From: Verrucomicrobiota bacterium
Lineage (GTDB): Bacteria; Verrucomicrobiota; Verrucomicrobiia; Limisphaerales; UBA11358
DNA: 64,000 nt
Reading direction: 5' to 3'
NCBI GenBank assembly: GCA_049509875.1
Contig: JBEKZM010000015.1
Location: forward strand, 4,546 to 68,545
Below, piece after piece: positions 3,912-45,747 of the stretch; positions within the stretch are counted from its first letter, which is position 1, and each line of letters starts with the position of its first letter. Below the pieces are notes generated by a model. That model was not told where the DNA came from. It was given only the letters and a program-made list of their open reading frames with translations, and searched no databases. Both the position numbers and the translations under genes were made by a program.

Positions 3912-4482
3912 TCTCTGCTTCCAGAAACCGCATGACCGTATCGCCGTGCTTGAGCATCTTCACTTCCACCCAGGGAGCAGCCAGTTCCAGCGTGTCCCGT
4001 TTCGTGTGGCCCAGCACAAATCTTCCGCCGGGCGCCAGCAGCCTGGGCAGGTGCGCAGCGTCGAGCAATTGCTGCGCGAAGGAAGTCGAGCGGCGGTTCA
4101 CATTTTTCTCCCCGTAGGGCGGGTCGGCCAGGATCAAATCGAATTGCCGCCCGTCGGCCGCAAGCTGGTTCAGGGCGGGAAAGACATCCTGGGTGCGCAC
4201 CTCCAGCATGTCGCCATAGCCGGCACCGGCCGCATTGTGGCGGATGAAGTCGGCATGGCGATGCGATCTTTCGATGGCTAGCGCGCTCGCCGCGCCGCGA
4301 CTCAGGCATTCGAGGCTCAGTGCGCCGCTGCCGGCGAACAATTCGAGCACCCGCGCGCCGGCCACCCGCGCGCCCAGCGAATTAAACACCGCCTGCTTGA
4401 CGAGGTCCGGCGTCGGCCGCACGTCCAGTCCCTTGGGGACCTTCAAAATCCGCCGCGCTGCCTGGCCGCCGGTGATACGCAT
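3904..4482 (-). CDS. rsmD: 16S rRNA (guanine966-N2)-methyltransferase RsmD-like
   Basis: MRITGGQAARRILKVPKGLDVRPTPDLVKQAVFNSLG..., a SAM motif LELFAGSGALSLE and the catalytic ADPPY. Confidence 0.85.
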   Translation of the reverse strand: MRITGGQAARRILKVPKGLDVRPTPDLVKQAVFNSLGARVAGARVLELFAGSGALSLECLSRGAASALAIERSHRHADFIRHNAAGAGYGDMLEVRTQDVFPALNQLAADGRQFDLILADPPYGEKNVNRRSTSFAQQLLDAAHLPRLLAPGGRFVLGHTKRDTLELAAPWVEVKMLKHGDTVMRFLEAETT

Positions 4483-4515
4483 GGGGAAAATCCAAGCAGG
4501 AAGGCGCCCGCGGAA

Positions 4516-9733: not shown

Positions 9734-11308
9734 TTACTTCCAATAGTTCCAGTCCACCTCCGGAAAGAGATTATCGCGCGATTCGATTTCGGTGAGCCAG
9801 GGCTCGTTGATGCCGGTGACGGTAAGCTGTTCGTGCAGGGCGATGAAGCGGAGCAAGTGATCCTTCACGCGGCGGCGGGCGTATTCGGGGCTGGTCTTGG
9901 CGCGCAGGATGAAGGGCCAGTCGCTGGCCTGGGCGAGCAGCAGTTCGCGCGCGGCTTGTTTCAGCGTCCGGGCCACCAAACCGTGGGCGCGGGGATATTG
10001 CCGGGCCAGTTCGGTCATGCGTTCCTGTGCCACTTGCAGGTGCGGGTAAATCCACTCGTTTGATTCATTGAGCCACACGCGCCAGTAACCCTCCTCGCCC
10101 CACGAGGACGCGCCGGGCGTGGCAATTTGATTGGTGGGATGGAGCCGTAGATAGCCGCGGGGTGTGATCAAGGACAGCGTGGATTGCTGCTCCTGGCAGA
10201 GCTTGCGCACGAGGAAGTCGAGAAATTCCGGGCCTTCATACCACCAATGGCCGAACAATTCGGCATCGTAGGGCGCGACGATGATCGGCGGCCGGTCGAG
10301 GATGCTTTCCAGCTTGCGGACCTGCGCGACGCGTTCGTCGAGGAAATGCCGGGCATGGTCACTGGCGGTGGCCAGGGCGTGGTCCCGCTGGTAAATTTGT
10401 TTCTCGCCGACGCCGGTAATGCGGTAGTACTTGATGCCGGTGAACCCGCGGTTGTCCGGCGACGGCAGATGTGGCCGGACGTAATCGAAGTCCAGATCGA
10501 AGCCGATGTCGCGGTAGAAATCGCGGTATCGCCAGTCACCGGGATAGCCTTCGTGCTTGCTCCAGACCTGGCGGGAGGAATCGAAATCGCGTCCGAAGGC
10601 CGCCACGCCGTTGGGCGCGTAGATGGGGGCGAAGGTGCTGTAGCGCGGGCGCGGGGTGGCGTGCAACAGGCCATGGGTATCGAGAATGAACCAGCGGATG
10701 TTCGCCTCCTGCAAGAAATCCTCGACGCCGGCCGAATAGGCGCATTCAGGCAGCCAGATGCCGGAAGGATCGCAGCCGAAACAACTGCGGTAATGGTCGC
10801 GGGCGGTGAGGATTTGTGCGCGGACGGAAGGCGGATGATTGCCCAGCAATGGCAACAGGCCGTGCGTGGCGGCGGTGGTGATGATTTCCAGCGTGCCCGC
10901 GTCCTGCAACAGCCGGAAGGCCTGCACGAGGTCGCCATTGTATTGCCGCCAGACCTCGCGCGCCCGCACGAATTTGTCGTGATACATCCAGGCGAGATCG
11001 CGGAAGGCGCGGTCCCAATGCGTGCGATGAATTTCCTTTTCCGCGAGGTCAATGAGGCCGTCCAGATGCCGCGCGTAACGCTGACACAGCAACGGGTCGC
11101 GCAGCATGAAGCAGAGGGTGGGCGACAGCGAGACAGTGAGGCGGGCGGGCAGGCCGTCGCGCAGCCAACCGTTGAAAATCTGGATGAGCGGCAGATAGGT
11201 TTCGGTGATGCCCTCAAAGAGCCAGCTTTCCTCAAGGAATTTTTCGTGCTCCGGATGCCGTACAAACGGCAGGTGCGCGTGCAGGACCAATGAGAGATAG
11301 CCGGGCAT
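9734..11308 (-). CDS. Glycoside hydrolase family 57 (1,4-alpha-glucan branching enzyme type)
   Basis: MPGYLSLVLHAHLPFVRHPEHEKFLEESWLFEGITETYLPLI is the typical GH57 branching-enzyme N-terminus. The ORF is 524 aa. Confidence 0.9.
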   Translation of the reverse strand: MPGYLSLVLHAHLPFVRHPEHEKFLEESWLFEGITETYLPLIQIFNGWLRDGLPARLTVSLSPTLCFMLRDPLLCQRYARHLDGLIDLAEKEIHRTHWDRAFRDLAWMYHDKFVRAREVWRQYNGDLVQAFRLLQDAGTLEIITTAATHGLLPLLGNHPPSVRAQILTARDHYRSCFGCDPSGIWLPECAYSAGVEDFLQEANIRWFILDTHGLLHATPRPRYSTFAPIYAPNGVAAFGRDFDSSRQVWSKHEGYPGDWRYRDFYRDIGFDLDFDYVRPHLPSPDNRGFTGIKYYRITGVGEKQIYQRDHALATASDHARHFLDERVAQVRKLESILDRPPIIVAPYDAELFGHWWYEGPEFLDFLVRKLCQEQQSTLSLITPRGYLRLHPTNQIATPGASSWGEEGYWRVWLNESNEWIYPHLQVAQERMTELARQYPRAHGLVARTLKQAARELLLAQASDWPFILRAKTSPEYARRRVKDHLLRFIALHEQLTVTGINEPWLTEIESRDNLFPEVDWNYWK

Positions 11309-11323
11309 GTCGCAATAAAATTG

Positions 11324-11560
11324 TTAGAGGTCCAATATGTCCGAAATCCAATCGGCAATGGCCCGCGCGCGAAGGAGCACCACGAAACCAATGAGGGACG
11401 GGACCAGGCGCACCAGGAGCGGAATAAGTCGCACCGGGACACGGCGGCCCGGGATGGAGCAACTGGCCCAATACAGGCCCAGTTCCAGGATGGTGACGAC
11501 AATACAAAGGACGCCGATCAGCCGGACCAGCGTCATGGCTCCGCGTTGGGGCGCGTCCAT
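11324..11560 (-). CDS. Small hypothetical 2-TM membrane protein
   Basis: A 78-aa ORF packed tightly between the DUF4912 stop (11565) and the GH57 start (11308). It has two hydrophobic segments (LVRLIGVLCIVVTILELGLYW and LIPLLVRLVPSLIGFVVLL). I recognise no family. Confidence 0.4.
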   Translation of the reverse strand: MDAPQRGAMTLVRLIGVLCIVVTILELGLYWASCSIPGRRVPVRLIPLLVRLVPSLIGFVVLLRARAIADWISDILDL

Positions 11561-15171: not shown

Positions 15172-15292
15172 CCCGACCTCCAACATTGGATGCACATTGA
15201 GGCCATGAACGCGCATGCTGGGAGCGCCGGTCTCCGACCCGGCTCGATCCTATTGCAGCCATCCAACGAGCCGGGTCAGAGACCGGCGCTCC
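15172..15292 (+). repeat. About 120-nt composite repeat B1: a 50-nt conserved flank plus a REP-B inverted doublet
   Basis: The arms GGAGCGCCGGTCTCCGACCCGGCTCG and CGAGCCGGGTCAGAGACCGGCGCTCC (15221..15292) flank the loop ATCCTATTGCAGCCATCCAA. The flank is CCCCGACCTCCAACATTGGATGCACATTGAGGCCATGAACGCGCATGCTG. A near-identical copy lies in reverse orientation at 44077..44196. Confidence 0.75.
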
Positions 15293-20486: not shown

Positions 20487-23084
20487 GTGAAATCCATTGC
20501 CTTAAACATTTTCACGCTTCCGGCGCTTCGCACGGCGGGAGGCGGTCACGCTGCGCCACCCAGGCTGCGCCTGTCGTTTTCAATTTTAATTGCTGGATTT
20601 ATTATGTCGTCAACACTTTCAGGATTGGCCCAGGCCAGTGCCGGCGGCGGGTGGACAACACTCGGGGCGATGTCCGCACCCGCCTGGGACGGGAAGACCT
20701 TGCGGTGGGAGAGTGGACAGGGCATCCTGGCCATCACCCCGCTGTCCGACGATGTTGTGCGCGTGCGTTTTACCACCGCGCCAGCGTTTGGCCGCGATCA
20801 TTCCTACGCGATTGTGAACCGGGCTCTGGAAGCCGCGACGGTCAAGACGGAAATGGGGCCGGAGGCGACCTTGCTGACCACGGCGTCGCTGAAAGTGACC
20901 GTCCGGCACTCGCCCCTGAGAATCTCGTTTGCCAGCCTGGCCGGGGAGGTTCTGGACGCGGACGACTCGGCGCGGGGGCTTTCCTTCGCCGGTACGGAGT
21001 TTCGCATCGCCAAGCAACTGCGCGACGACGAGCACGTCTATGGCTTTGGCGAAAAATGCGGCCGGCTCGACAAGCGGGGCCAGCAGCTTGGCGGCTATAA
21101 CTATGTGATGTGGAACTCCGATACGCCGGCTTACGATTCCGCCACCGATCCGCTGTACGTGGCCGTCCCCTTCTTCATGGTCACGCACCAGGGGCAGGCG
21201 CACGGCATTTTTCTGGACAACACGTGGCGCAGTTTTTTCGATGTGGGCCGCGAACAGCCGGGCTTGCTGACCTTTGGCGCCGACGGCGGCGACGTGGATT
21301 ATTATTTCATCAACGGCCCCGGGCCCCGGAAGGTCATCGAGCGCTACACCGCGCTCACGGGACGGATGCCGCTGCCGCCGTTGTGGTCGCTGGGCTACCA
21401 GCAATGCCGCTGGAGCTACTATCCCGAGGCGCGGGTGCGGCTGCTGGCGGACACGTTCCGGGCGAAGCAGGTGCCCGCCGATGCCCTATGGCTCGACATT
21501 CACTACATGGACGGCTACAAGCCGTTCACCTGGGACCCGCAGCGTTTTCCGAATCCAGCCAAAATGATTGCGGATTTGCGCGCCCAGGGATTCCGGCTGG
21601 TGACCATTCTGGATGGACATCCGCCGGCCTTGAAGGGTTATGCGCCCTACGAGTCGGGCCTCGCCGCCGGTCACTTTGTCAAATTGCCGGACGGAAAGGT
21701 GTTTGAAGGGCCGGTGTGGCCTTCGCAGGCCGAGCGGGAACCCGCGCCGAGCGTATTTCCGGATTTCAGCCGGCCGGCCACGCGTGATTGGTGGGGTGGC
21801 CTGTATGGGAGCCTGCTCGAGGTCGGCGTGGCCGGCATCTGGAACGACATGGATGAGCCCTCCGTATTCGACACCCCCAACGGGACCATGCCCATGGACG
21901 TGGTTTTCGACAATGAGGGTGAACCGGCCAACAGTCGCCAGATGCACAATCTTTTTGGCCAGTTGATGAGCCGCTCGACCTTCGAGGGTTTGAGCCGGTT
22001 GCGCCCGGAGGAGCGGGCGTTCGTGCTCACGCGGTCCACATTTGCGGGCGGCCAGCGTTATGCGGCAGTCTGGACGGGCGACGCCTCGGCGGACTGGTCT
22101 TCGCTGCGGCAATCCGTTTCCATGTTGATGGGGCTGGGCATTTCTGGATTTCCTTTTGTGGGCAGCGACATTGGCGGGTTCGTGCGGATGCCGTCGGCGG
22201 AACTGTGCACGCGCTGGCTGCAGGTCGGTGTCTTCAGTCCCTTCATGCGCATGCACACCGAAATCGCGACGCCGGACAAGGAGCCGTGGTCGTTTGGGTG
22301 GCGCTACGAAGCAGTCAACAAGGCGGCCATTGAGCTGCGTTACCAACTGCTGCCCTATATTTACAATGTGATGCAGCAGGCCAGCGAAACCGGCGTGCCG
22401 GCGCTGCGGGCGCTGTTGGTGGACTTTCCCGATGACGAAAAGACAGCCAAAGCCGACGACGAGTTCCTGTTTGGCGATGATTTGCTGGTGGCGCCGGTCT
22501 TATGGGAGGGCGCGGACGAACGGGATGTCTATCTGCCCGCCGGCGAGTGGTTTGATTATTGGACCGGCCAAAAATACGCGGGCAAGGCCACGATTCATAG
22601 GCCGGTAACGATTGATTCGATTCCCCTGTTTGTGCGCGGTGGCGGGTTTGTCTTTCGCCAGCCGGTGGTTCAGCACACGGGCGAAATGCCGGGGCAGCCG
22701 CTGGGGGTGCTCGTGGCGCCGGCGGCGGCGTCTGAAGGATCGCTGTACGAGGATGACGGTAAAAGCCTGGCTTACCGGCAGGGTGAATTCATGAAACGTA
22801 CGTTTCGTCAGACTCGCGACGCGGCCTCCTGGGTGGTTGCAGTGGGTGCGCCGGCAGGGACGTATCGCCCGGCCAAGCGCGACTTGGTTTTGGAAACGTG
22901 GCTGGAACATGAGCCCAACGCGGTCAGCGCGCAGGCCAACGGGGCGGCGGCCAGCGAGACGTTGGCGCGTATGAGTCCCGCCGAGCTGGCAAAAGCACCC
23001 CGCGGCTGGTCGTTCGCTGACGGGTTGGTGACGTTAAAGGACAATGATCGTTTTGAGGCAGCGCGCTACACGGTTCAGTTTTGA
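20487..23084 (+). CDS. Glycoside hydrolase family 31 alpha-glucosidase (secreted)
   Basis: The catalytic region GIWNDMDEP plus FVLTRSTFAGGQRYAAVWTGD and FVGSDIGGF. The start is uncertain: GTG 20487 gives a signal-like N-terminus, and the alternatives are 20313 or ATG 20604. Confidence 0.88.
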   Translation: MKSIALNIFTLPALRTAGGGHAAPPRLRLSFSILIAGFIMSSTLSGLAQASAGGGWTTLGAMSAPAWDGKTLRWESGQGILAITPLSDDVVRVRFTTAPAFGRDHSYAIVNRALEAATVKTEMGPEATLLTTASLKVTVRHSPLRISFASLAGEVLDADDSARGLSFAGTEFRIAKQLRDDEHVYGFGEKCGRLDKRGQQLGGYNYVMWNSDTPAYDSATDPLYVAVPFFMVTHQGQAHGIFLDNTWRSFFDVGREQPGLLTFGADGGDVDYYFINGPGPRKVIERYTALTGRMPLPPLWSLGYQQCRWSYYPEARVRLLADTFRAKQVPADALWLDIHYMDGYKPFTWDPQRFPNPAKMIADLRAQGFRLVTILDGHPPALKGYAPYESGLAAGHFVKLPDGKVFEGPVWPSQAEREPAPSVFPDFSRPATRDWWGGLYGSLLEVGVAGIWNDMDEPSVFDTPNGTMPMDVVFDNEGEPANSRQMHNLFGQLMSRSTFEGLSRLRPEERAFVLTRSTFAGGQRYAAVWTGDASADWSSLRQSVSMLMGLGISGFPFVGSDIGGFVRMPSAELCTRWLQVGVFSPFMRMHTEIATPDKEPWSFGWRYEAVNKAAIELRYQLLPYIYNVMQQASETGVPALRALLVDFPDDEKTAKADDEFLFGDDLLVAPVLWEGADERDVYLPAGEWFDYWTGQKYAGKATIHRPVTIDSIPLFVRGGGFVFRQPVVQHTGEMPGQPLGVLVAPAAASEGSLYEDDGKSLAYRQGEFMKRTFRQTRDAASWVVAVGAPAGTYRPAKRDLVLETWLEHEPNAVSAQANGAAASETLARMSPAELAKAPRGWSFADGLVTLKDNDRFEAARYTVQF

Positions 23085-23091
23085 CCAGAGT

Positions 23092-23311
23092 GGAGCGCCG
23101 AGCATTGCTCGGCCCGGGCTAATTAAAGCGTGTCGCTCTCCGGACGGATAGTGGTTGGTCGGGGACCACCTGATTCTTCTTCAGGTTTTCCACACGTTGA
23201 GGCGCGCGGGCCGAGCAATGCTCGGCGCTCCGTTGCGGAGACGGACACGCCGGGTCGCGCTTGGTGGTCCACGCGTTGAGACATACCGGCCGAGCAATGC
23301 TCGGCGCTCCG
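23092..23311. repeat. Composite REP-A cluster, left: one forward and two reverse REP-A hairpins
   Basis: The forward unit is GGAGCGCCGAGCATTGCTCGGCCCGG (23092..23117). The reverse units TCCACrCGTTGAG-N7-GGCCGAGCAATGCTCGGCGCTCCG lie at 23189..23232 and 23268..23311. The hairpin is CCGAGC-ATT-GCTCGG. Confidence 0.85.
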
Positions 23312-23324
23312 GCAGCGATCCAGT

Positions 23325-24023
23325 TTATGGTACCAAGCCATCGGGAATGATCAGCCGGCGGTATTGGTCCCTAAACCGGGCGCTGCTGGACGGCCCCTCT
23401 GGCAAGCCAAGCCTGGCTTTGATTGGGTTGCTTTCAATATCGTGAGCCGCTTTCTGCTCCTGCTCCGGGTTGCGCATGAAGCTGTCCCAGTATTCGCGCT
23501 GCCAAAAGGAACCGTCGCGACCCAGAATGCGATTGGCTTGGAGAGCCATAATGGACTTCCAGTTTTGAAGGATTTTGGCAAGCAGCCAATCCCAGACGTG
23601 GACAAGCACGTGGAAATGATTTGGCATTACGCACCAAGCAAGCAACTCATATCGCTTGTGATGGTGAAATAAAGATGCCCGCTCAACGGCTTGGGCAATC
23701 TGGGGCAGGCGTAGCCAGCATTCGCCAAAGCCGCGGTCCAGGTATGATTCCAGCTCCTTGCGGCGTGCCCGGGTATCCTCAATCTCCAGCAGATGTTTCC
23801 ATTCGGAGCGCCGGGAAGCAGGCAACGAATTCACCAATCTCAACGTGATAAATTGAACCAATCCGGGCTTGTCGCAATGCGGAAGATAACCGCGCTCGTG
23901 CCAGCCGAGAAAGCCATGGGCACGATCTTCGGCGGTGAGCGGCTCGTCCCACCGGTTCTTTTCGTAAACCAGTTCACGGAGGTACTCGCGTTTTCCAGCC
24001 GGCGGGCGCTTCAATTGCGGCAT
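23325..24023 (-). CDS. REP-associated tyrosine transposase (RAYT; IS200/IS605 TnpA-like HUH Y1 enzyme), copy 1
   Basis: GWHERGYLPHCD, the HUH motif VMPNHFHVLVHV, the catalytic Tyr region FWQREYWDSFMRN, and ESNPIKARL. I prefer the ATG at 24023 (MPQLKRPP...), because the track ORF start at 24110 reads through a REP. Confidence 0.85.
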   Translation of the reverse strand: MPQLKRPPAGKREYLRELVYEKNRWDEPLTAEDRAHGFLGWHERGYLPHCDKPGLVQFITLRLVNSLPASRRSEWKHLLEIEDTRARRKELESYLDRGFGECWLRLPQIAQAVERASLFHHHKRYELLAWCVMPNHFHVLVHVWDWLLAKILQNWKSIMALQANRILGRDGSFWQREYWDSFMRNPEQEQKAAHDIESNPIKARLGLPEGPSSSARFRDQYRRLIIPDGLVP

Positions 24024-24024
24024 A

Positions 24025-24244
24025 GGAGCGCCGAGCATTGCTCGGCCCGGATTGATTAAAGCATATGACCTTCCCGCCGGGCAATAGTAGGTTGGCAGCG
24101 CCTGGCCCACTTTTCAGTCGTTCCACGCGTTGAGGCGCGCGGGCCGAGCAATGCTCGGCGCTCCGGTGCGGGGACGGTCACGCTGGGCCGCGCTTGAGGT
24201 TCCACGCGTTGGGGCACACGGGCCGAGCAATGCTCGGCGCTCCG
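24025..24244. repeat. Composite REP-A cluster, right: same architecture as 23092..23311
   Basis: The forward REP is at 24025..24050. The reverse units are at 24122..24165 and 24201..24244. Anchored on track ORFs 23325..24110 and 24130..24453 (the recurring GRAMLGAP translation). Confidence 0.85.
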
Positions 24245-24253
24245 GACGCGCAC

Positions 24254-25120
24254 TCACTCACGGGAACGGTTGTCGTAGAGTTCCTTCGACAATTGTTCCA
24301 ACTGTTTCCGCTGGGCAGTCGAAAGGCTTTCGAGACCATCCCGCGAAATCTTGTCCAGCAGCTCATCCATTTGGGCGATCTTTTGGTTACGCTCGCGGTT
24401 TGCCTCATATCGGCGCGCCCGTTCGCCGCCCGCCGGCTCTGCTTTGTTTTTAAACGGCCACTTAAAGCAGCAAAGCGGGTCGCGAATCAAAATGACCAGG
24501 ATGATCGACGACAAGATCATTACCGCCGCAAATGTCCCGGGAGCCGCCCGGATCAATCGCGGATACATCGCGGCTGCCACGAGAAGACCGACCATGGCGC
24601 CGCCGAGATGAGCATCGTGGCCGAGGTTGCCGGCCTGGCGGCGGTGGGCGGCGAATGAGCCCACGAGGAAGATGGGCGCATATAAATAACCGGGCACGCC
24701 GAAAGGGAACGGGAACATGATGATGTTGTTCCCGGGCATCAGGAAAATGGACGCGAAAATAATGCCGCAGACGCCGCCGGACGCCCCCAGCGCCCGGTAT
24801 TCGTGGTGGCGATGAACGATCAGCGACAAGAGTGAGCCGCCGACAATCGAGGAGCCGTAAATCAGCAGCAGGGTCCCGGCTCCGTAGAGCGATTCGATGA
24901 TCCGGGCGAAACTGAAGAAGCTGAAGGCGTTGAAGGCAAAGTGCAGCCAGTCGAGGTGAATCAGGCCGGACGTGAATATCCGGTGGTACTCCTTGCGCAC
25001 CAGAATGGCCTGGGGATCAAACATCCAACCCTCGCGCAGGTCCGGCCGTTGAAACGCGTAAATTGTGGCCAGCGCGGTGATGATCAGGACGGCAATGGTC
25101 GCGGGGGCGTGCATCACCAC
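24254..25120 (-). CDS. Rhomboid-family intramembrane serine protease with a C-terminal cytoplasmic coiled tail
   Basis: Six or more TM segments, the catalytic GASGGVCGI and the His region AHLGGAMVGLL. The C-terminal tail ...IAQMDELLDKISRDGLESLSTAQRKQLEQLSKELYDN is helical and charged. Confidence 0.85.
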   Translation of the reverse strand: MVMHAPATIAVLIITALATIYAFQRPDLREGWMFDPQAILVRKEYHRIFTSGLIHLDWLHFAFNAFSFFSFARIIESLYGAGTLLLIYGSSIVGGSLLSLIVHRHHEYRALGASGGVCGIIFASIFLMPGNNIIMFPFPFGVPGYLYAPIFLVGSFAAHRRQAGNLGHDAHLGGAMVGLLVAAAMYPRLIRAAPGTFAAVMILSSIILVILIRDPLCCFKWPFKNKAEPAGGERARRYEANRERNQKIAQMDELLDKISRDGLESLSTAQRKQLEQLSKELYDNRSRE

Positions 25121-25890
25121 ATGGAGCGCCGGTCTCCGACCCGGCCCGTTGGAAAGGTCAACCGCCGATATTCATCCCTGAACCGCGCGCTGCTGAACGG
25201 CCCCTCTTCGGGCAGGCGGCAAAGCTCGGCCTTGAGCGGGTTGTTTTCAATGTAGTGAATGGCTTTCTGCTCCTGCTCTTCGTCGCGCAGGAAGGTGTCC
25301 CAGTACTCGCGCTGCCAGCGCAATTGGAGCGCCAGTCTCCGACCCGGCCCGTCGAACTTCGGATCGCCGTCGAGCCGGGCCGGAGACCGGCGCTCCGTCA
25401 TGACATCCACCGCCTGTGTGGCGATAAATCGTTTCCAACTTTGCATGATCTTTCCCAACGGCGTCATTCGCACGTTTACGAGCACATGAACGTGGTTGGG
25501 CATCACGCACCAGGCCTGAAGGTCATAGCGCTCTCTGTGAAAATGCAGCAAAGTTGTTTCGGCAAGTTCTGCGACGCGTGCCTCCCGCAGCCGGCATTCT
25601 CCTACGCCGCGATCCAAGTACTCCTCTAGTTTCAGGCGGCGATCTCGGATATCCACAAGCTTTAGCAGATGTTCCCACTCAGCGCGCCGGCTGGCCGGCA
25701 TTGAATCGTGGAGGCGGATGGTGACCAACTGAGTCAGATTTGGAAAATCACAATGGGGCAGATAGCCACGTTCGTGCCAGCCAAGAAAGCCCAAGAGACG
25801 CTCGTGCTCGGTCAACGACCGCGACCACCTGTCCTTGTTTTCGACTAAACGGCGAAGATGTTCGCGCTTGGAACGAGTCGGCGTAACCAT
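25114..25890 (-). CDS. REP-associated tyrosine transposase (RAYT), copy 2, carrying an in-frame REP-B doublet
   Basis: GWHERGYLPHCD, the HUH motif VMPNHVHVLVNV, RWQREYWDTFLRD and ENNPLKAEL. I prefer the ATG at 25890 (MVTPTRSKREHL...). By eye, about half of the positions are identical to copy 1. Confidence 0.8.
   Translation of the reverse strand: MVTPTRSKREHLRRLVENKDRWSRSLTEHERLLGFLGWHERGYLPHCDFPNLTQLVTIRLHDSMPASRRAEWEHLLKLVDIRDRRLKLEEYLDRGVGECRLREARVAELAETTLLHFHRERYDLQAWCVMPNHVHVLVNVRMTPLGKIMQSWKRFIATQAVDVMTERRSPARLDGDPKFDGPGRRLALQLRWQREYWDTFLRDEEQEQKAIHYIENNPLKAELCRLPEEGPFSSARFRDEYRRLTFPTGRVGDRRSMW
25123..25146. repeat. Single REP-B unit at the RAYT-2 stop / rhomboid start junction
   Basis: The minus strand reads GCCGGGTCGGAGACCGGCGCTCC, translated as GRVGDRRS at the RAYT-2 C-terminus. 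Confidence 0.7.
25326..25396. repeat. REP-B inverted doublet inside the RAYT-2 coding sequence
   Basis: The minus strand reads GGAGCGCCGGTCTCCGGCCCGGCTCGACGGCGATCCGAAGTTCGACGGGCCGGGTCGGAGACTGGCGCTCC. It is translated as ERRSPARLDGDPKFDGPGRRLAL (aa 240-262). Confidence 0.8.
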
Positions 25891-25937
25891 GCGAGTGGTG
25901 TAACAAAGGCGCGGTTTGGATGCGAGCGCAATTGGAC

Positions 25938-26004
25938 CGCCGGGCTCCGACCCGGCCTGATGGCAGTCCAAATTCCAACGCGCCGGGTCGGAGACCGGCG
26001 CTCC
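25938..26004. repeat. REP-B inverted doublet between the acnA stop and the RAYT-2 start
   Basis: The minus strand reads GGAGCGCCGGTCTCCGACCCGGCGCG...GGCCGGGTCGGAGCCCGGCGG. It starts 5 nt downstream of the acnA stop and may double as its terminator. Confidence 0.7.
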
Positions 26005-26008
26005 GGCA

Positions 26009-28822
26009 CTAAGCCTTCGCGACCAACTGGCGCAGGACGAACGGGAGAATGCCGCCGTGCTGGTAGTAGTCGATTTCGATGGGCGTGTCGATGCGGCAGC
26101 GGACGGGAACATTTTCCACGCTGCCGTCCTTGCGCGTGATCTGGAGCACCAAGTCCTGCTGCGGTTTCAGATGTTCATCGAGCCCCACGAGGTCGTAGCT
26201 CTCCGAGCCATCGAGCTTGAGGCTGGGCGCCGTGGTGCCGTCCTTGAATTGCAGGGGCAGCACGCCCATGCCGACGAGGTTGCTGCGGTGGATGCGCTCG
26301 AAACTCTGCGCCACCACGGCTTTCACGCCGAGGAGGTTGGTGCCCTTCGCGGCCCAGTCACGGGACGAACCGGTCCCGTATTCCTGCCCGGCAATGACGA
26401 TGAGCGGCGTGCCGCGCCTCTGGTATTCGAGCGAGGCGTCGTAGATGGAGAGCTTGCGGCCTTGGGGCTGGAGGATGGTGTCGCCGCCTTCCTGGCCGGC
26501 GAGCATGAGGTTTTTGATCCGGACATTGGCGAAAGTGCCGCGGGTCATCACGCGGTCGTTGCCGCGGCGCGAACCGTAGCTGTTGAAGTCTTCCGGCGCG
26601 ACCCCGTTGGCGACGAGATATTTTCCGGCGGGCGAAGTCTTCTTGATCGAGCCGGCCGGCGAAATGTGGTCGGTGGTGACGCTGTCGCCGAAGATGGCCA
26701 GGGCGCGGGCGCCGTTGATGGGCTTGATGCCGCCGATTTCAAGCGAGAAATTCTCGAAGAACGGAGGCTCCTGAATATAGGTGGATTTGCGGTCCCATTC
26801 GTACACATTGCCCGCGGTGGAAGGAATTTCGTTCCACTTGGGATTTTGCGCCGCGAAATCCTGGTAGAGCCGGCGGAAGACGTCGGGCTGCAACGCGGAT
26901 TGCATGAGTTCGCGCACTTCGCGCAGGCTGGGCCAGATATCGCGCAGATGCACGGGTTGGCCGTTCTTGCCGGTTCCCAACGGGTCGTTGGCAAGGTCGA
27001 TGTCCACCCGGCCGGCGAGCGCAAAGGCCACGACGAGCGGGGGCGACATGAGGAAATTGGCCTTGATATTTTGATGCACGCGCGCCTCGAAATTGCGGTT
27101 GCCGGACAAGACGGAGGCGGCGACGAGGTTGTTTTTGACGACGGCGTCCTCGATGGCCGGATGCAACGGGCCGGAATTGCCGATGCAGGTGGTGCAGCCG
27201 TAACCGACGAGGTTAAAGCCCAGCTTGTCGAGATAGGGCTGCAGGCCGGTTTTGTCCAAATAGTCGCTGACGACCCGCGAGCCGGGCGCGAGCGACGCTT
27301 TGACGGTGGAATTCACGGACAGGCCCTGTTCCACGGCCTTCTTGGCGAGGAGCCCGGCGGCGAGCATCACAGAGGGGTTGCTGGTGTTGGTGCAACTGGT
27401 GATCGCCGCGATGAGCACCGAACCATTGCGCACATTGCCATCCAGCGCGGCGGCGCGGGAATGAATGGGATCGGGCGTGGGATGTTCGGAGGCCATTTCA
27501 CCTTCGCCGCGGCCGCGGCCGTTTTTCTGGTCGCCGCCGCCGGGATGAATTTCGCCGCCGGCCGCGACGTGCACCGTGCGCGACAGTTCCTCGGGCTTCA
27601 TGCCAAAACCATTTTCCGTGACGGGCCGGCTGAAAGCGGAGATGAATTCCTGCTTCAACTTTGGCAGTTCGATGCGGTCCTGAGGGCGCTTGGGGCCGGC
27701 CACGCTGGGCAGCACGGTGGCCAGGTTGAGTTCCAGTTCCTGCGAATACGCGAGGTCGCCCTTCTTGGGAATGCCCCACAGTCCCTGCGCCCGATAATAG
27801 TTCTCGTAAGTCTTGATCGCCTCCTCGCTGCGGCCGGTGGCGCGGAGATAATTGACGCACTCGGCGTCAATCGGGAAAAAGCCCATCGTGGCACCGTATT
27901 CCGGGGCCATGTTGGCGATGGTGGCGCGATCCACAATCGGGAGCGCGCTCGCGCCGGGGCCAAAGAATTCGACGAACTTGCCCACCACCTTGGCTTTGCG
28001 CAGCATCTGGGTGACGGTGAGGGCCACGTCGGTCGCCGTCACGCCTTCGCGGATGGCGCCCGTCAGGTGGACGCCCACGACGTCGGGCGTGAGAAAATAA
28101 ACCGGCTGGCCGAGCATGCCGGCCTCGGCTTCAATGCCCCCAACGCCCCAGCCGACGATGCCCAGGCCGTTAATCATGGTGGTGTGCGAATCCGTGCCCA
28201 CCAGGGTGTCGGGATAATGGACGCCCCCGGCTTCGAGCACGCCCTTGGCCAGGTATTCGAGGTTCACCTGATGCACGATGCCGATGCCCGGCGGCACCAC
28301 CTTGAAGGTGTCGAAGGCTTGCATGCCCCATTTCAGGAACTGGTAGCGCTCGCGGTTGCGGGTGAATTCCAGGTCGAGGTTGCGGGCCATGGCCGTGGCG
28401 TTGCCGGCAAAGTCCACCTGCACCGAGTGGTCCACCACCAGGTCCACCGGCACGAGCGGTTCGATGATTTTGGGATTCTTGCCCAGCTTGGACACGGCGC
28501 TGCGCATGGCGGCCAAATCGACCAGCAGTGGCACGCCGGTGAAGTCCTGCAGCACGATACGGGCGACCACGAACGGGATTTCCGCCGTGCGCGTCTCGGC
28601 GGGCTTCCAGTTGGCCAGTTCCCGCACATTGGCCTCGCTGACCTTTTTGCCGTCGCAATTGCGCAGGACGGACTCGAGGACGAGGCGGATGGACACCGGC
28701 AGTTTGGAAATGGGACCGGCGCCGGCCTGTTCCAAGGCGGGCAGCGAATAAAACTTTCCCTGGGCGCCGTTGCCCAGCTCAAAGGTTTGCAGAGTGCCGA
28801 GTAAATTGTGTGGTGTGCTCAT
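26009..28822 (-). CDS. acnA: Aconitate hydratase A
   Basis: A 937-aa ORF with Fe-S cluster ligand regions (GTDSHTTM; [10 protein letters not shown]; [10 protein letters not shown]) and the swivel domain at the C-terminus. Confidence 0.95.
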
Positions 28823-32641: not shown

Positions 32642-32667
32642 AGGCGCGCCGGGCATTGCCCGGCCCG
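32642..32667. repeat. REP-A variant with compensatory stem changes
   Basis: GGCGCGCCGGGCATTGCCCGGCCCGC compares with family A GGAGCGCCGAGCATTGCTCGGCCCGG. The stem pair A/T is changed to G/C on both arms, so the palindrome is retained. Confidence 0.5.
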
Positions 32668-39606: not shown

Positions 39607-39632
39607 CGAGCCGGGTCGGAGACCGGCGCTCC
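39607..39632. repeat. Single REP-B unit
   Basis: The minus strand reads GGAGCGCCGGTCTCCGACCCGGCTCG, translated as ERRSPTRL in track ORF 38882..39634. Confidence 0.65.
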
Positions 39633-41098: not shown

Positions 41099-41186
41099 AT
41101 ACACCAATTAAGGCCGGGCCATCACCGGGAACAGGCTTGCGTTTGACGGCGCGATAAACTAGAAGTCAGGCGAACAAGAAAACGTT

Positions 41187-42059
41187 ATGGCCACCTATTT
41201 CGTCCTGGGCGCTGACAACAAGGAATACGGCCCGGTGCCAGAAGATGAGTTGCGAAAGTGGGTCGCCGAAGGCCGGGCTGACGCCCAGTCCAAGGTTCGC
41301 CTCGAAGGCACATCTGATTGGCTGCCGCTGGCGCAAGTGCCCGAATTGGCCGGCGCTGCGTCAGCCAAAGCGCCGGTCCCGCCGCCGCCGATACCTCCGC
41401 GCGCGCCGGCCAGCCGGACCAGCGCGATGGCGGTCACTGCGCTGGTGTTGGGCATTATGGGCTTGTTCAGCTGCGGCGGCACGGCGCTGTTCGGGCTGGT
41501 TCTGGGCATCATCGCCATGGTGCGGGTGACGAACAGCCGGGGCACGTTGACCGGCAAAGGCATGGCGTTGGGGGGAGTGATCGTTTCGGCGGTCTGCCTG
41601 CTCCTGATTCCGATCTTCGCGGCGCTGCTCCTGCCGGCCCTGTCCGCGGCCAAGCAAAAGGCGATGCAAATTAATTGCGTGAACAATGAGAAACAATTGG
41701 CCGCGGCCGTGCGCATTTATTCGGGGAATCATGCGGACCACTTTCCGCCGGCGGCCACCTGGTGCGATGCCATCCATTCCGCCGTTGGTTCCGACCGGGT
41801 ATTTGAGTGCCCGGCGGCGCCAGGCTCCAGCCGCTGTGACTACGCCTTCAACGCCAAACTCGATGGCCTGGACGCAAGCAAAGTCAATCCGCAGACGGTG
41901 CTGCTGTTTGAGTCGAACACGGGCTGGAACGCAAATGGCGGACCCGAACTGGCGGTCGCACGCCATCGCGGGCATTCTTCCATCGTGGTGGCTTTCGCGG
42001 ATGGGAGCGTTCAAATAATGTCGGACACGCGGCTGAACTCTTTACGCTGGGAACCGTAA
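41187..42059 (+). CDS. GYF (DUF4339) - DUF4190-like TM - DUF1559-like pseudopilin-core fusion protein
   Basis: The N-terminus is YFVLGADNKEYGPVPEDELRKWVAEGRADAQSKVRLEGTSDWLPLAQVPEL (GYF_2). The TM pair is AVTALVLGIMGLFSCGGTALFGLVLGIIAMVRV...GMALGGVIVSAVCLLL. Then come LLLPALSAAKQKAMQINCVNNEKQLAAAV and the terminal HRGHSSIVVAFADGSVQIM, typical of PVC DUF1559 pseudopilins. Confidence 0.75.
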   Translation: MATYFVLGADNKEYGPVPEDELRKWVAEGRADAQSKVRLEGTSDWLPLAQVPELAGAASAKAPVPPPPIPPRAPASRTSAMAVTALVLGIMGLFSCGGTALFGLVLGIIAMVRVTNSRGTLTGKGMALGGVIVSAVCLLLIPIFAALLLPALSAAKQKAMQINCVNNEKQLAAAVRIYSGNHADHFPPAATWCDAIHSAVGSDRVFECPAAPGSSRCDYAFNAKLDGLDASKVNPQTVLLFESNTGWNANGGPELAVARHRGHSSIVVAFADGSVQIMSDTRLNSLRWEP

Positions 42060-42086
42060 CCAAAAGCAGGCAAACCTAAGACTATT

Positions 42087-43085
42087 ATGGCCAACTATTA
42101 CGTCATCGGAGGCGACGGCAAGGAATACGGTCCGGTGACCGATGCCGAGGTGCGGCAATGGATTTCCGAAGGCCGGCTCAATGCCGAATCGCGCGTGAAA
42201 GCTGAGAGCGACGCCGAATTCCGCGCCTTGGGGCTTTTTCCGGAATTCGCCGAGGCCTTAAAGCAGAGGAGTTCTCCGGCCGCGGTTCTTCCAGCCGGCC
42301 CGAAACCGGACGCAGAGGAGGCAGACTGGCAGGCGGAGGTCCTGGCGCGCGAGCCGGAGCTGAGGTTTGGGGAGTGCCTGGCGGCTGGCTGGAGTTTTCT
42401 GGGAGCCAACACGGGCTTTTTGACCGCCGCGGTATTGTTGACGTGGGCAACCAATCTTGTGTTTGCGGTCATTGCGGTCACGGTGCCGGTGGTTGGCCCC
42501 TTCATTCTGCTGTGTTTTCACGGCGTCGTTCTGGGCGGGTTTTATCTCGCCTGCCTGCGCCGCCTGCGCGGCGAAGCGGTGTCGCCCGCCGAAGTTTTCA
42601 GCGGATTCAAGAGCGGGTTCGCACAACTGCTGCTAACCGGGCTGGTGAGCATGTTGCTGGCTCAATTGGGCGCCTGCTGTTTTATCCTGCCCTTTGTTTA
42701 CCTTATCATTGCGTGGTTCTTCGCGGTGCCGCTAGTGGCGGACAAAAAGCTTTTCTTCTGGGCGGCGATGGAATTGAGTCGAAGGGTGGTCACGCGCGTC
42801 TGGTTTGAAATGTTTGTCCTGCTGGCGATTGCGTTTCTGCCGATGCTGGTTTTCCAGGCCTATAGCCTGGTCGAGACCGGGAAATTCTTTCTGGGGCTGT
42901 ATGACCAGTCCGGCCACGACTGGCAGCAATTGGCGCAACTGTTGCAGTCCAAGGCCGGCGACATCCGAAATCTGACCATCCGATCGACGGTGATCGGACA
43001 AGGCGTTTACTTGCTGAACCTATTCTACTGCGCCGGTGTTGTAATACGTGCGTATGAAAACCTTTTCGGGCGCAGAAAATCATGA
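42087..43085 (+). CDS. GYF (DUF4339) domain polytopic membrane protein
   Basis: YYVIGGDGKEYGPVTDAEVRQWISEGRLNAESRVKAESDAEFRALGLFPEF is paralogous to the preceding gene's N-terminus. About six hydrophobic segments follow. Confidence 0.75.
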   Translation: MANYYVIGGDGKEYGPVTDAEVRQWISEGRLNAESRVKAESDAEFRALGLFPEFAEALKQRSSPAAVLPAGPKPDAEEADWQAEVLAREPELRFGECLAAGWSFLGANTGFLTAAVLLTWATNLVFAVIAVTVPVVGPFILLCFHGVVLGGFYLACLRRLRGEAVSPAEVFSGFKSGFAQLLLTGLVSMLLAQLGACCFILPFVYLIIAWFFAVPLVADKKLFFWAAMELSRRVVTRVWFEMFVLLAIAFLPMLVFQAYSLVETGKFFLGLYDQSGHDWQQLAQLLQSKAGDIRNLTIRSTVIGQGVYLLNLFYCAGVVIRAYENLFGRRKS

Positions 43086-43461: not shown

Positions 43462-44077
43462 AGCGCAGCGCGACGCCAAAAACGCGCTCGTGAACATTCT
43501 CGTTTTTCCCGGGCTGGGCTCGTTGCGGTCAGGGCGAAGGGTCGCCGGCTGGGGACAAATCATTTTGGTGCTGACTGGCTGCGCCCTGCTGGTGGCCTGG
43601 TTTTTCAAGGAAATGTCCCAATACTATGGTATGATGTTCGGAGACGAGAAACCGAAGGCAATCGGCTGGATCGGCGCAACGGGCGGAGCGCTGTTCGCCA
43701 TTTCCTGGCTGTGGGCTGGCGTAACCAGTCTCAGTTTGTTTCAGGCAGCGTCAAAGCCAAACCCGACGCCGCCGGTGATTCCGCCCGCCGCAAAAATGAA
43801 TCTGGACGCCGACACCCTACGGACCGCATGCGCCTCGCTGCCAAAATGGCAGCGCCACGGCGAAATCATTTCGCGCACGTACGAGTTTGAGGATTTTGTT
43901 GCGGCAATGAAGTTTGTCAACGCCGTGGCCGCCCTGGCCGAACGGGCGCAGCATCATCCCGACATCGACGTGCGCTGGAACAAGGTCACGCTTGCGCTCA
44001 CCACCCACGATGCCGGCGGCCTCACGGAAAAGGACTTTGTGCTGGCCCGCGAATGTGACGGGCAGGCCGGACTTTGA
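43451..44077 (+). CDS. 2-TM PGLGSL-motif domain fused to pterin-4a-carbinolamine dehydratase (PCD/DCoH)
   Basis: The C-terminal half WQRHGEIISRTYEFEDFVAAMKFVNAVAALAERAQHHPDIDVRWNKVTLALTTHDAGGLTEKDF is a canonical PCD core (HHPD). The N-terminal half has two TM helices. The start overlaps the previous ORF by 11 nt. Confidence 0.8.
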   Translation: MRNEAQRDAKNALVNILVFPGLGSLRSGRRVAGWGQIILVLTGCALLVAWFFKEMSQYYGMMFGDEKPKAIGWIGATGGALFAISWLWAGVTSLSLFQAASKPNPTPPVIPPAAKMNLDADTLRTACASLPKWQRHGEIISRTYEFEDFVAAMKFVNAVAALAERAQHHPDIDVRWNKVTLALTTHDAGGLTEKDFVLARECDGQAGL

Positions 44078-44196
44078 GGGCCGGTCTCCGACCCGGCTCG
44101 TTGGATGGCAGCAATAGGATCGAGCCGGGTCGGAGACCGGCGCTCCCAGCGTGCGGGTTCACGGCCGCAATGTGCCTCAATTTTTGGAGTTCGGAG
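44077..44196 (-). repeat. About 120-nt composite repeat B1 (second copy, reverse orientation)
   Basis: GAGGGCCGGTCTCCGACCCGGCTCG-TTGGATGGCAGCAATAGGAT-CGAGCCGGGTCGGAGACCGGCGCTCC plus a 50-nt flank ending ...TTTTTGGAGTTCGGAG. The loop and flank match the reverse complement of 15172..15292 with few changes. Confidence 0.75.
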
Positions 44197-44905: not shown

Positions 44906-45325
44906 TCAGGGTTGATCGGGAGCGGCTTTGACGGCGATGGCGATGCGCTGGATGCCGGCGCGTTTCACAAAATCCAGAACGAACATCATCGAACCGTGCG
45001 TGGCGCTGCGCGCGCCGGTAATGTAAACCGGCAGGTTGGTGTTCAAACTGTAACGATTCGTCAGCAGCGTGAACAGCTCGGGATAGGCGATGGCTTGGTC
45101 GTCCACGGAAACCTGTCCGTCCCGATTCACGGTAAGATTGACGATGTCGGGCTTTTTCGTGGGCGCGGCGAGGGTGGCCGTGGGGAGATTGGACTTGAGC
45201 GTGCGGACCATCTGCATTTGCAGGCTGATCATCATGAACGACGCGAGCAGGAAAAACATAATGTCAATCAGCGGAATGATTTCCAGCCGCGATTTTTTTT
45301 CCGAAATGGGCGTGCGGATCTTCAT
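44906..45325 (-). CDS. exbD: ExbD/TolR biopolymer transport protein
   Basis: SRLEIIPLIDIMFFLLASFMMISLQM is the ExbD TM signature with the conserved Asp. The ORF is 139 aa. Confidence 0.85.
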   Translation of the reverse strand: MKIRTPISEKKSRLEIIPLIDIMFFLLASFMMISLQMQMVRTLKSNLPTATLAAPTKKPDIVNLTVNRDGQVSVDDQAIAYPELFTLLTNRYSLNTNLPVYITGARSATHGSMMFVLDFVKRAGIQRIAIAVKAAPDQP

Positions 45326-45747
45326 GGCCTCGCCGGACTCGGCCGGCTGTCGGTCATGAAAGCGATCTTTTGAATCCCGACTGCGCGGGCCGTTTCGTAC
45401 ACCTTCACCATGTCGCCGTGCAGCGTGTCGCGGTCGCCGCTGATATAGACGGGGAGTTCGGGATTGGCGTGAAAGCGATTGCTCAAGGCGAAGCCGAGGT
45501 CCGCGAGCGAAATCTCCTTTTTCTCCAGCCAGACCGCACCCGACTTGTCCACGGCGATGTTGATCATGTCCGGCCGGAAATCCTGACGCGATTGCGTGGC
45601 GGACGGCAGGTTGACCTTGATGTTCTCCGTCTTGCTCATCTCCAGGCTGACCATCATGAACGCCGCCAGCAGAAAAAACATGATGTCAATCAGCGGGATG
45701 ATGACGATCCTGGTTCGGCGCCTGGCAATTGGGGAGGGGATCTTCAT
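45322..45747 (-). CDS. exbD: ExbD/TolR biopolymer transport protein (second paralogue)
   Basis: MKIPSPIARRRTRIVIIPLIDIMFFLLAAFMMVSLEM. The start is at aa 33 of the track ORF. It has an ATGA overlap with the downstream exbD. Confidence 0.85.
   Translation of the reverse strand: MKIPSPIARRRTRIVIIPLIDIMFFLLAAFMMVSLEMSKTENIKVNLPSATQSRQDFRPDMINIAVDKSGAVWLEKKEISLADLGFALSNRFHANPELPVYISGDRDTLHGDMVKVYETARAVGIQKIAFMTDSRPSPARP

Follow-up and report, generated by a model that had tools for sequence, protein, structure and literature searches.

In a stretch of 64,000 nucleotides from a Verrucomicrobiota bacterium (GenBank assembly GCA_049509875.1, contig JBEKZM010000015.1, positions 4,546 to 68,545; the window in what follows), two genes for tyrosine transposases of the type associated with repetitive extragenic palindromic (REP) sequences, RAYT1 and RAYT2, lie close together on the minus strand. 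We think it very probable that they form two adjacent REPtrons in a Limisphaerales-like member of the Verrucomicrobiota, each made up of a TnpAREP/RAYT gene of the subclass 2.4 type, present in single copy and inherited vertically, and the REPs associated with it. That two RAYT-type genes of the HUH (histidine–hydrophobic residue–histidine) class stand side by side here, at 23325-24023 (232 amino acids) and 25114-25890 (258 amino acids), had been predicted from the sequence, and is borne out by the open reading frames (ORFs), which are as originally located, by the 55% identity of the two products (BLASTP E value 3e-89) and by their matches to the Pfam family Y1_Tnp. Two further observations carry the interpretation: the RAYT gene occupies a fixed slot beside the aconitase gene acnA in about 30 related loci, as would a single-copy gene inherited vertically, and the flanking REPs belong to dispersed families, REP-B being present at three other loci in the window and REP-A in at least 116 metagenome stretches.

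The RAYT proteins

Both proteins narrowly pass the gathering score of 23 for Y1_Tnp (PF01797; 25.1 bits for RAYT1 and 23.7 for RAYT2), and both match the NCBIfam model REP_Tyr_transpos (NF047646; E values 2e-16 and 1e-19, 60 and 70.4 bits), from which their homology to this family is clear, although they are divergent from its curated seed. The single relative found by phmmer among PDB entries is Escherichia coli TnpAREP (4ER8), the alignment placing PNHVHVL on PEHMHCI (the HUH motif) and IHYIENNP on VDYIYINP. An AlphaFold model of RAYT2, built on an alignment of 141 sequences (mean predicted local distance difference test score, pLDDT, 83.5), also has 4er8_A as its best PDB match in Foldseek (E value 4e-6, probability 1.00), followed by the IS200, ISDra2 and IS608 transposases. 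The HUH motif is NHFHVL in RAYT1 and NHVHVL in RAYT2, and its histidine columns are kept in 225 of the 226 proteins of our alignment, which comprised 224 database homologues and the two window proteins.

Subclass 2.4 of TnpAREP (group 4 of Bertels) is defined by the signature NH[IFV]H, WQ, YIxNNP (PMC6006769, Table 1). The motif set found here is NH[V/F]H, WQ, YIENNP, and the consensus of the homologue family NHVH, WQ, YIENNP; judged by motifs, the proteins thus carry the exact subclass 2.4 signature. The motifs first used to recognise them (GWHERGYLPHCD, NH(F/V)HVLV and WQREYWD) are indeed all present in both proteins. However, the view of WQREYWD as a Y1 signature has to be given up. In E. 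coli TnpAREP the active site consists of H59/H61, Y115, N119 and H123, with Y115 catalytic (PMC3479197); the counterpart of WQREYWD in that protein is WQPRFWEH, which has no tyrosine, and in the phmmer alignment to 4ER8 Y115 falls on the tyrosine of IHYIENNP (Y213 in RAYT2), so that the nucleophile is instead the tyrosine of Y-I-x-x-N-P.

At this nucleophile column, 222 of the 226 aligned proteins have tyrosine. RAYT2 is among them, with its HUH motif, Tyr213 and Asn217 all intact. RAYT1 has aspartate (D195), a substitution otherwise seen only in its identical copy, P0001. This is not a read error, since the protein recurs unchanged on three separate metagenome contigs. (An exact look-up of the 232-residue RAYT1 protein gave no match, because gene callers start the ORF five codons further upstream, inside a REP; the 237-residue P0001 was then found.) RAYT1 also deviates at 7 of the 103 columns that are conserved at 90% or more (median 3; top 7.5%), which is suggestive, though only that, of relaxed selection. 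With Asp in place of the nucleophilic Tyr, but with its HUH motif kept and its ORF unbroken, RAYT1 is probably catalytically dead, and is most likely to be either an inactivated copy or one that only binds DNA. The locus had been put forward as a natural experiment with two enzymes, of which one is thus probably dead.

Many RAYTs that bear the insert described below are named 'type I restriction enzyme R subunit/putative DNA methylase' at JGI (P0101, P0105, P0121, P0122, P0130, P0134-P0136 and others), and the precomputed Pfam domain is often missing from such proteins. This naming is probably a mis-annotation caused by the REP-encoded insert.

REP hairpins in the window

The features of the locus, and the REPs dispersed elsewhere in the window, are as follows.

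26009-28822, minus strand: acnA, aconitase gene (937-amino-acid ORF; Pfam Aconitase and Aconitase_C), with the RAYT slot directly downstream
25934-26004: REP-B doublet (REPIN) upstream of RAYT2; units 25934-25956 (plus strand, degenerate foot GGACCGCC) and 25982-26004 (minus strand)
25114-25890, minus strand: RAYT2, TnpAREP-like HUH/Y1 protein; HUH residues H133/H135 (codons 25492-25494 and 25486-25488), putative catalytic tyrosine Y213 (25252-25254)
25326-25396: in-frame REP-B doublet within RAYT2; units 25326-25348 (plus) and 25374-25396 (minus), encoding residues ~166-189 (ERRSPARLDGDPKFDGPGRRLALQ)
25123-25145, plus strand: single REP-B unit forming the 3' end of the RAYT2 ORF (tail ...TGRVGDRRSMW) and abutting the rhomboid start
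24254-25120, minus strand: rhomboid-family protease gene between RAYT1 and RAYT2 (Pfam Rhomboid, 84.7 bits, and DUF6576)
24025-24250: REP-A module upstream of RAYT1; units 24025-24046 (plus), 24143-24164 (minus) and 24222-24243 (minus)
23325-24023, minus strand: RAYT1, 232-amino-acid paralogue free of the insert; HUH intact (H136/H138), Asp195 at the nucleophile position (codon GAT, 23439-23441)
23092-23317: REP-A module downstream of RAYT1, a direct repeat of 24025-24250; units 23092-23113 (plus), 23210-23231 (minus) and 23289-23310 (minus)
15221-15292: dispersed REP-B doublet (REPIN) at a boundary between ORFs (-34.5 kcal/mol, z -9.0)
39610-39632, minus strand: dispersed single REP-B unit, found by the core search
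44075-44146: dispersed REP-B doublet, the REPIN of 15221 in opposite orientation (core and spacer match)
32643-32666, plus strand: degenerate REP-A-like unit GGCGCGCC-GGGCATTGCCC-GGC, in which one foot position is mismatched and an A-T pair of the stem has become G-C by compensatory change

Repeats were counted over the whole window with the hairpin core alone as query. For the REP-A core, GCCGAGCATTGCTCGGC, six sites were found (23097, 23210, 23289, 24030, 24143 and 24222; 0.05 expected), all of them adjoining RAYT1 and none elsewhere in the 64 kb (the 13 matches listed count both strands of a near-palindrome); away from RAYT1 the family is represented only by the degenerate relic at 32643. 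The REP-B core, GCCGGTCTCCGACCCGGC, gave 10 matches against 0.00 expected: there are five cores at RAYT2 (doublets 25939/25982 and 25331/25374, the latter inside the ORF, and a single core at 25128), and others, missing from the list first drawn up for this locus, in a doublet at 15226/15270, a single unit at 39610 and a doublet at 44080/44124. These searches confirm that six REP-A units surround RAYT1 and that REP-B lies around and inside RAYT2. They also uphold the proposal of a foot common to both families, since the 5' foot GGAGCGCC is shared far above chance and GGAGC is exact in 14 of the 16 units retrieved by the core alone.

The hairpins have a 7-bp stem (GCCG-NNN ... NNN-CGGC) that begins one nucleotide past the GGAG foot, and usually occur as inverted doublets (REPINs). 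The six REP-A units are arranged as two direct-repeat modules of ~226 bp, ~87% identical and 933 bp apart, that bracket RAYT1. REP-B doublets folded as single-stranded DNA hairpins reach -30 to -35 kcal/mol (z -5 to -9), with -29.8 kcal/mol (z -5.1) for the upstream doublet and -34.9 kcal/mol (z -5.8) for the intragenic one. The spacer at 15221-15292 is the reverse complement of that at 44075-44146 with one mismatch, so the doublet, or REPIN, is the unit that is repeated. The doublets belong to no known RNA family, Rfam giving only sub-threshold matches to miRNA-like hairpins. Among the 29 REP variants compared, foot and GCCG/CGGC stem base do not vary, and compensatory changes are found in the three inner pairs and one stem-base pair; 97% of cells are paired and 39 are changed on both sides, a result that none of 500 shuffles reached. 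The tetranucleotide GT[AG]G by which REPtrons have been recognised is replaced here by GGAG, followed by CGCC, with A3 and G4 kept and T2 changed, and the GGAG foot is seen in all REP families of related genomes.

Further families combine the GGAGCGC foot with GCGG...CCGC at the base of the stem, as in GGAGCGCGGCGTTTACGCCGC and GGAGCGCGGAGCATTGCTCCGC, and occur as dispersed doublets (L005:751-870 and 4399-4505; L031:7078 and 14386; L036:11914-11979). Within the 20-kb loci no RAYT was identified for them.

An in-frame REP doublet inside RAYT2

RAYT2 had been described as interrupted by family B hairpins. This is misleading, as the doublet is in frame and is a conserved feature of the RAYT2 clade, found at the same site in most RAYT2-type homologues. 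The 226 aligned proteins differ in the length of the segment between the HUH motif and WQREYWD.

32-33 amino acids: ~75 proteins, RAYT1 type (...ANRILGRSGSF)
45-56 amino acids: ~135 proteins, RAYT2 type
61-69 amino acids: ~9 proteins, longer inserts

The additional residues come from the translation of REP doublets (as in ERRSPTR...PGRRPALQ), and the in-frame site is occupied in more than 100 homologues. The halves of the insert are encoded by codon-aligned reverse complements (ERRAPAR/PSGCSAL, ERRTPIR/PNRSSAL, ERRSPDR/PIRRSAL), which means that the DNA inverted repeat is preserved while its sequence changes. In the AlphaFold model the insert (residues ~164-191) is predicted to be a disordered loop (pLDDT 50-65) between helix alphaC (145-163) and strand beta4. 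At genomic loci, the head-to-head distance of the intragenic doublet is 1 mod 3 in 14 cases out of 15, and exactly 70 nt in 12 of these, whereas the distance in upstream doublets varies between 66 and 88 nt, being 1 mod 3 in only 12 of 20. About 23 of 27 close genomic orthologues give one full-length tblastn alignment. By these measures, the reading frame is under selection.

Precise excision restoring the form without an insert was considered and rejected: the deletion derivatives P0070/71/78 and P0112 still bear scars (ALALQSF or ERRRPALQ, for instance), and the ancestral GRxGxF loop is not restored. Other rearrangements are seen at the same site. In L018 (10734-10985) the C-terminal part of the gene is duplicated after the REP at the intragenic position, and alignments are split at the intragenic REP in L036 (10495-10746) and L037 (3651-3683); the intragenic doublet seems to act as a rearrangement breakpoint. 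An extreme accumulation of intragenic REPs is found in L033 (1136-2370), where the acnA-adjacent RAYT gene contains eight REP units belonging to three families (five close to its 5' end, the other three between the HUH motif and the tyrosine), with a REP-A doublet just downstream.

Synteny and concerted evolution across relatives

A scan of species-representative genomes yielded 80 loci, of which the ~30 closest are from Verrucomicrobiia, Limisphaerales and Pedosphaera metagenome-assembled genomes (MAGs). In ~30 related MAG and metagenome loci, acnA is followed directly, on the same strand, by a RAYT gene; these include nearly all of the closest loci (the highest acnA identity being 86% for a species-representative genome, L029, from Limisphaerales, and 91% for a metagenome contig, L200), and the rhomboid gene follows the RAYT gene in L015 and L024 also. 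The layout is stereotyped: a first REP doublet lies at about -115/-45 and a second, in frame, at about +490/+565, and the stop codon carries one REP or two; in RAYT2 orthologues the REP at or beyond the stop codon is usually a single inverted one.

About eight REP stem families are represented among these genomes (e.g. GGTCTCCGACC, GATCTCCYGATC, GGCYTCCRGCAC, GAGCACCGYCTC and GAGCTCCTGCTC), and the intragenic and flanking REPs of one gene generally belong together: their 15-nt cores are identical in 17 of 25 loci, and the mean best REP identity, 0.95 inside a locus, falls to 0.75 when different loci are compared (permutation p <= 1e-4). Even hetero-pairs of REPs are reproduced as pairs (L014, L020, L022, L029 and L030). 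In several genomes the similarity of upstream and intragenic copies extends ~13 nt into the coding flank (...CCAAT..TTGGCA), and in the window the 3' flank of the upstream doublet, CCAATTGCGCT(C/G)GCA, is common to the intragenic one. The comparison shows that upstream and intragenic doublets evolve in concert at an orthologous locus. A loose foot-plus-stem filter, applied to the 20-kb loci, gave counts of dispersed REPs too noisy for matching the dispersed family of each genome to its RAYT, and we count only the clear cases, in the window, L015, L016 and L028.

In most genomes the acnA slot is occupied by a RAYT2-type gene, with the RAYT1 type present in L005, L032, L034, L109, L116 and L200. 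Intact pairs like that of the window are rare in the sample, and in L032 the first gene is directly followed by what is left of the N-terminus of a second RAYT. The simplest reading of this distribution is that the side-by-side RAYTs represent an old tandem pair that has undergone differential loss.

Pairing of REP families with RAYT types, and the possible role of helix alphaC

Does each RAYT have its own REP? At least 120 metagenome stretches contain the REP-A 22-mer without mismatch. For 116 of those listed there is no RAYT nearby, and in the four of the 120 where a RAYT adjoins, it is of the insert-free RAYT1 type with the tyrosine present. Pairing of REP-A with RAYT1-type genes is seen elsewhere in L005 (where the RAYT is 72% identical to RAYT1), L096, L109, L116 and L200. 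These findings make REP-A a genuine dispersed family whose partner is the RAYT1 type; REP-B-like families pair with RAYT2-type genes in related loci. The original prediction of one REP for one RAYT therefore holds for the types, REP-A with RAYT1 and REP-B-like repeats with RAYT2, but not at every flank, as is seen from L200 and from the REPs downstream of several genes, to which we return below.

In E. coli TnpAREP, helix alphaC carries the hairpin-contacting residues R78 and K82 (PMC3479197), and in RAYT2 the arginine-rich peptide encoded by the intragenic REPIN sits beside the corresponding putative hairpin-recognition helix. Within the RAYT2 clade, alphaC identity is 0.70-0.80 among proteins with the same REP type and 0.53-0.56 between types, the rest of the protein being equally similar. 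Such co-variation fits the co-evolution of an enzyme with its substrate, but would also fit simple linkage, if conversion tracts span the helix together with the insert. Protein P0048 is informative here. Both of its sides are 75-100% identical to the insert-free P0011, but its alphaC is only 35-40% identical to that of P0011 and 70% identical to that of the RAYT2-type P0171, and the insert is present. This protein shows that alphaC and the insert can be exchanged as a block. One might go further and suppose that alphaC and the in-frame REPIN make up a portable specificity cassette, such that the gene carries a template of its own target DNA, exchange between paralogues like the two of the window would switch the REP family that is propagated, and the intragenic copy could be a protected master copy for the REPIN population of the genome or an autoregulatory site; we regard this speculation as distinctly unlikely to be correct.

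Alternative explanations

It might be argued that RAYT2 is a pseudogene, broken when a REP-B doublet jumped into it and left with an open frame by accident. The insert is indeed a bona fide REPIN, one or two mismatches from the dispersed copies, and the orthologues in L036, L037 and L018 are broken at or near the insert site. However, an accident would hardly be repeated as the same in-frame insert in more than 100 homologues, with 14 of 15 genomic copies keeping the frame (12 of them at exactly 70 nt), the HUH motif, Tyr213 and Asn217 intact, and ~23 of 27 close orthologues aligning over their full length by tblastn; the insert falls in a surface loop of an otherwise confident model, and Quentin (2018; PMC6006769) has reported the same phenomenon, without disruption of the gene. 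We therefore consider this explanation very improbable. A less drastic departure would be that REPINs inserted many times independently into a hot spot in the gene, rather than once, in an ancient insertion since kept similar by gene conversion. The REP family at the site does differ among genomes, small groups bearing the insert are found among insert-free proteins in a neighbour-joining tree (a rough one, used for its broad pattern only), and the short 3' flank common to upstream and intragenic copies (CCAAT..TTGGCA) could be a target motif. Yet all inserts share one codon phase (ERR... / ...ALQ) and one position, the adjoining alphaC helix changes with the insert as a block, P0048, with its RAYT1-type backbone and RAYT2-type alphaC-insert cassette, points to recombination, the dispersed REPINs of the window lack the shared flank, and the deletion derivatives P0070 and P0112 leave scars and no ancestral GRxGxF loop. 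On balance, repeated insertion seems unlikely.

The hairpins might also be host regulatory elements, such as terminators or mRNA stabilisers, whose transposase-like neighbours are incidental. Units do stand at ORF boundaries, the upstream doublet begins 4 nt past the acnA stop codon, and REPs are known to affect mRNA stability and termination (PMC3733652). A regulatory role is compatible with spread driven by RAYTs. To the idea that regulation is the whole explanation we give little credence, as REP family and RAYT type co-vary between genomes, REP-A adjoins a RAYT only when this is of the RAYT1 type (among the matches listed), and the predicted terminator-like sites coincide with no REP unit, the REPs having no T-run. 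That RAYT1 and RAYT2 are both active, autonomous insertion sequences of the IS200/IS605 type, as their Y1_Tnp fold and the hairpins at both ends might suggest, is scarcely credible: each is present once in the window and they are only 55% identical, the acnA-adjacent position is fixed in ~30 genomes while the RAYTs have diverged by 30-45%, the tyrosine motif is YIxNNP (YIENNP here) rather than the Y[IV]ENQ of IS200 (PMC6006769), and RAYT1 has no tyrosine.

The interpretation as two adjacent REPtrons has its own difficulties, which should be set against it. The RAYT1-type gene of L200 has REP-A upstream but a REP-B unit in its 3' end, and REPs downstream of the gene are often of another family (as for several RAYT2-type genes). 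The GGAG foot differs from the GT[AG]G by which described REPs are defined, and both proteins score below the NF047646 equivalog cut-off (60 and 70.4 against 80 bits). All six REP-A cores beside RAYT1 are perfect, which argues against a long-dead system. The alignment behind the hairpin covariation was registered by hand. The insertions described for subclass 2.4 lie between beta3 and alphaC, that of RAYT2 between alphaC and beta4. Finally, binding, cleavage and mobility would be attributed to this subclass by analogy. In L200 itself, the RAYT1-type ORF ends in a REP-B-encoded tail (11190-11214), and the next gene holds a degenerate REP-B unit in its 5' region (11400-11425).

A possible mechanism

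If the two REPtrons operate like those of E. coli and Marinomonas (PMC3479197, PMC8266576), the enzyme would bind a folded, single-stranded REP through helix alphaC and the foot, and would cut nearby by means of an HUH-bound metal and the tyrosine, at a dinucleotide selected by A3 and G4 of the foot. Cleavage could then mobilise, rearrange or recombine REP doublets. RAYT2 has an intact HUH motif and Tyr213, a conserved slot beside acnA and the architecture of its clade, in which REPs are placed upstream, in frame and at the stop codon. The intragenic doublet remains in frame and is homogenised with the flanking copies of the same genome, perhaps through gene conversion or perhaps through the enzyme's own action. 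RAYT1 pairs with REP-A as its relatives do, most likely as the inactivated or DNA-binding-only copy proposed above.

Relationship to known systems

Much of this has precedents. REPtrons, genomes with several RAYTs each having its own REP or REPIN family, and vertical inheritance are all established (PMC3116915, PMC5581495, PMC3733652). Among Verrucomicrobiota, Opitutus terrae is REP-rich, with several families and many in-frame intragenic dimers, and species with several REP families have, as a general rule, repeat-specific REPtrons (Di Nocera, 2013; PMC3733652); in-frame REPs inside tnpAREP genes are a hallmark of subclass 2.4 (Quentin, 2018; PMC6006769). The suggestion that such an arrangement had not been described for this lineage was therefore too strong. 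We see in the locus a good handle on RAYT specificity, but no new kind of system.

There is a close likeness to subclass 2.4 (PMC6006769), whose NH[IFV]H, WQ, YIxNNP motifs are matched here. Other points in common are the in-frame REP of RAYT2 (25326-25396), the occurrence of 'double-foot' REPs (here in L039, 16914-16940, and in the contracted insert of P0112) and the low copy number. Besides the foot (GGAG rather than GT[AG]G) and the position of the insert, the differences are that the RAYT2-type insert is nearly fixed in length and is a complete REPIN, and that the proteins have 232-258 residues, compared with a median of 194, because of an N-terminal extension. The subclass has been described mainly from Cyanobacteria and Bacteroidetes, whereas RAYT1 and RAYT2, assigned to it by motifs, are from Verrucomicrobiota; none of five verrucomicrobial names that we looked for occurs in the supplementary text of PMC6006769.

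With E. coli TnpAREP (YafM/RayT, 4ER8), the best match for RAYT2 in both sequence and fold, the pair shares the HUH motif (RAYT2 also the tyrosine on alphaD within Y-I-x-x-N-P) and the organisation of a single-copy gene flanked by REPs with a 5' tetranucleotide foot, in which A3 and G4, proposed to select the CT cleavage site (PMC8266576), are kept in GGAG. However, identity in the structural alignment is only 15%, position 2 of the foot is G instead of T, the 7-bp stems are perfect or have one bulge whereas the E. coli hairpin is bulged, RAYT2 holds an in-frame REPIN, and both proteins are below the NCBIfam equivalog cut-off. The REPs of O. terrae (PMC3733652), from the same phylum, are likewise of several families per genome and include in-frame intragenic dimers encoding 20-30 amino acids, but their feet are GTAG or GTGG, and the intragenic REPs reported by Di Nocera (2013) are in uvrA, ligase and helicase genes, not, as here, in the RAYT gene itself. 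The REPIN-RAYT systems of Pseudomonas (group 3; Bertels and Rainey, 2011) resemble ours in that REP doublets with conserved spacers are the unit, that a genome has several distinct RAYTs with a REPIN family for each, and that inheritance is vertical; they involve another RAYT subclass, no intragenic REPIN has been reported in them, and the RAYTs of the window are 1 kb apart.

As we read this literature, the new points are the GGAG foot, the placing of the insert between alphaC and beta4 and its near-fixed length, the concerted evolution of intragenic and flanking doublets, the way in which alphaC co-varies with REP type, the synteny with acnA across an order, and a natural Tyr-to-Asp paralogue. 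Few systems resembling mobile elements persist by vertical descent; RAYT-REP systems are among them, and the way in which a RAYT recognises its own REP family is only partly understood. The related genomes offer a natural series of about eight stem variants on a constant foot (GGAG-C-GCCG...), in which a putative recognition helix varies along with the stem, the associated REP family can be read from the protein sequence through the in-frame REPIN, and the Tyr-to-Asp copy is a further natural variant; the determinants of specificity are therefore directly testable by swaps of alphaC, insert and foot. There is also a consequence for annotation, in that insert-bearing RAYTs often lack a precomputed Pfam match and many have acquired restriction or methylase names.

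Neighbouring genes and other observations

The stop codon of RAYT2 and the ATG of the rhomboid gene overlap as TGATG (25114-25120), and only 4 nt separate the acnA stop codon from the start of the upstream REP-B doublet, which suggests that acnA, RAYT2 and the rhomboid gene are cotranscribed. A sigma-70 consensus scan of 22900-26300 revealed no promoter, the consensus being uninformative for this phylum.

Some contigs with the acnA-RAYT arrangement are in bins labelled Bifidobacterium or Bifidobacteriaceae (L011, L015, L019, L026, L031 and L033), Kapaibacterium (L012) or Hyphomicrobium (L025). Their acnA genes are 71-87% identical to those of Limisphaerales-like MAGs, and mis-binning or mislabelling is likely.

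Two direct repeats elsewhere in the window are of other kinds. One, of 110 nt (41167-41276 and 42067-42176, 73% identical and 900 bp apart), probably reflects adjacent paralogous genes. The other, of 66 nt, is at 45215-45280 and 45637-45702 (88% identical, 422 bp apart); its reverse complement translates to IIPLIDIMFFLLASFMMISLQM, and the genes concerned look like tandem paralogues of the ExbD/TolR type on the minus strand.

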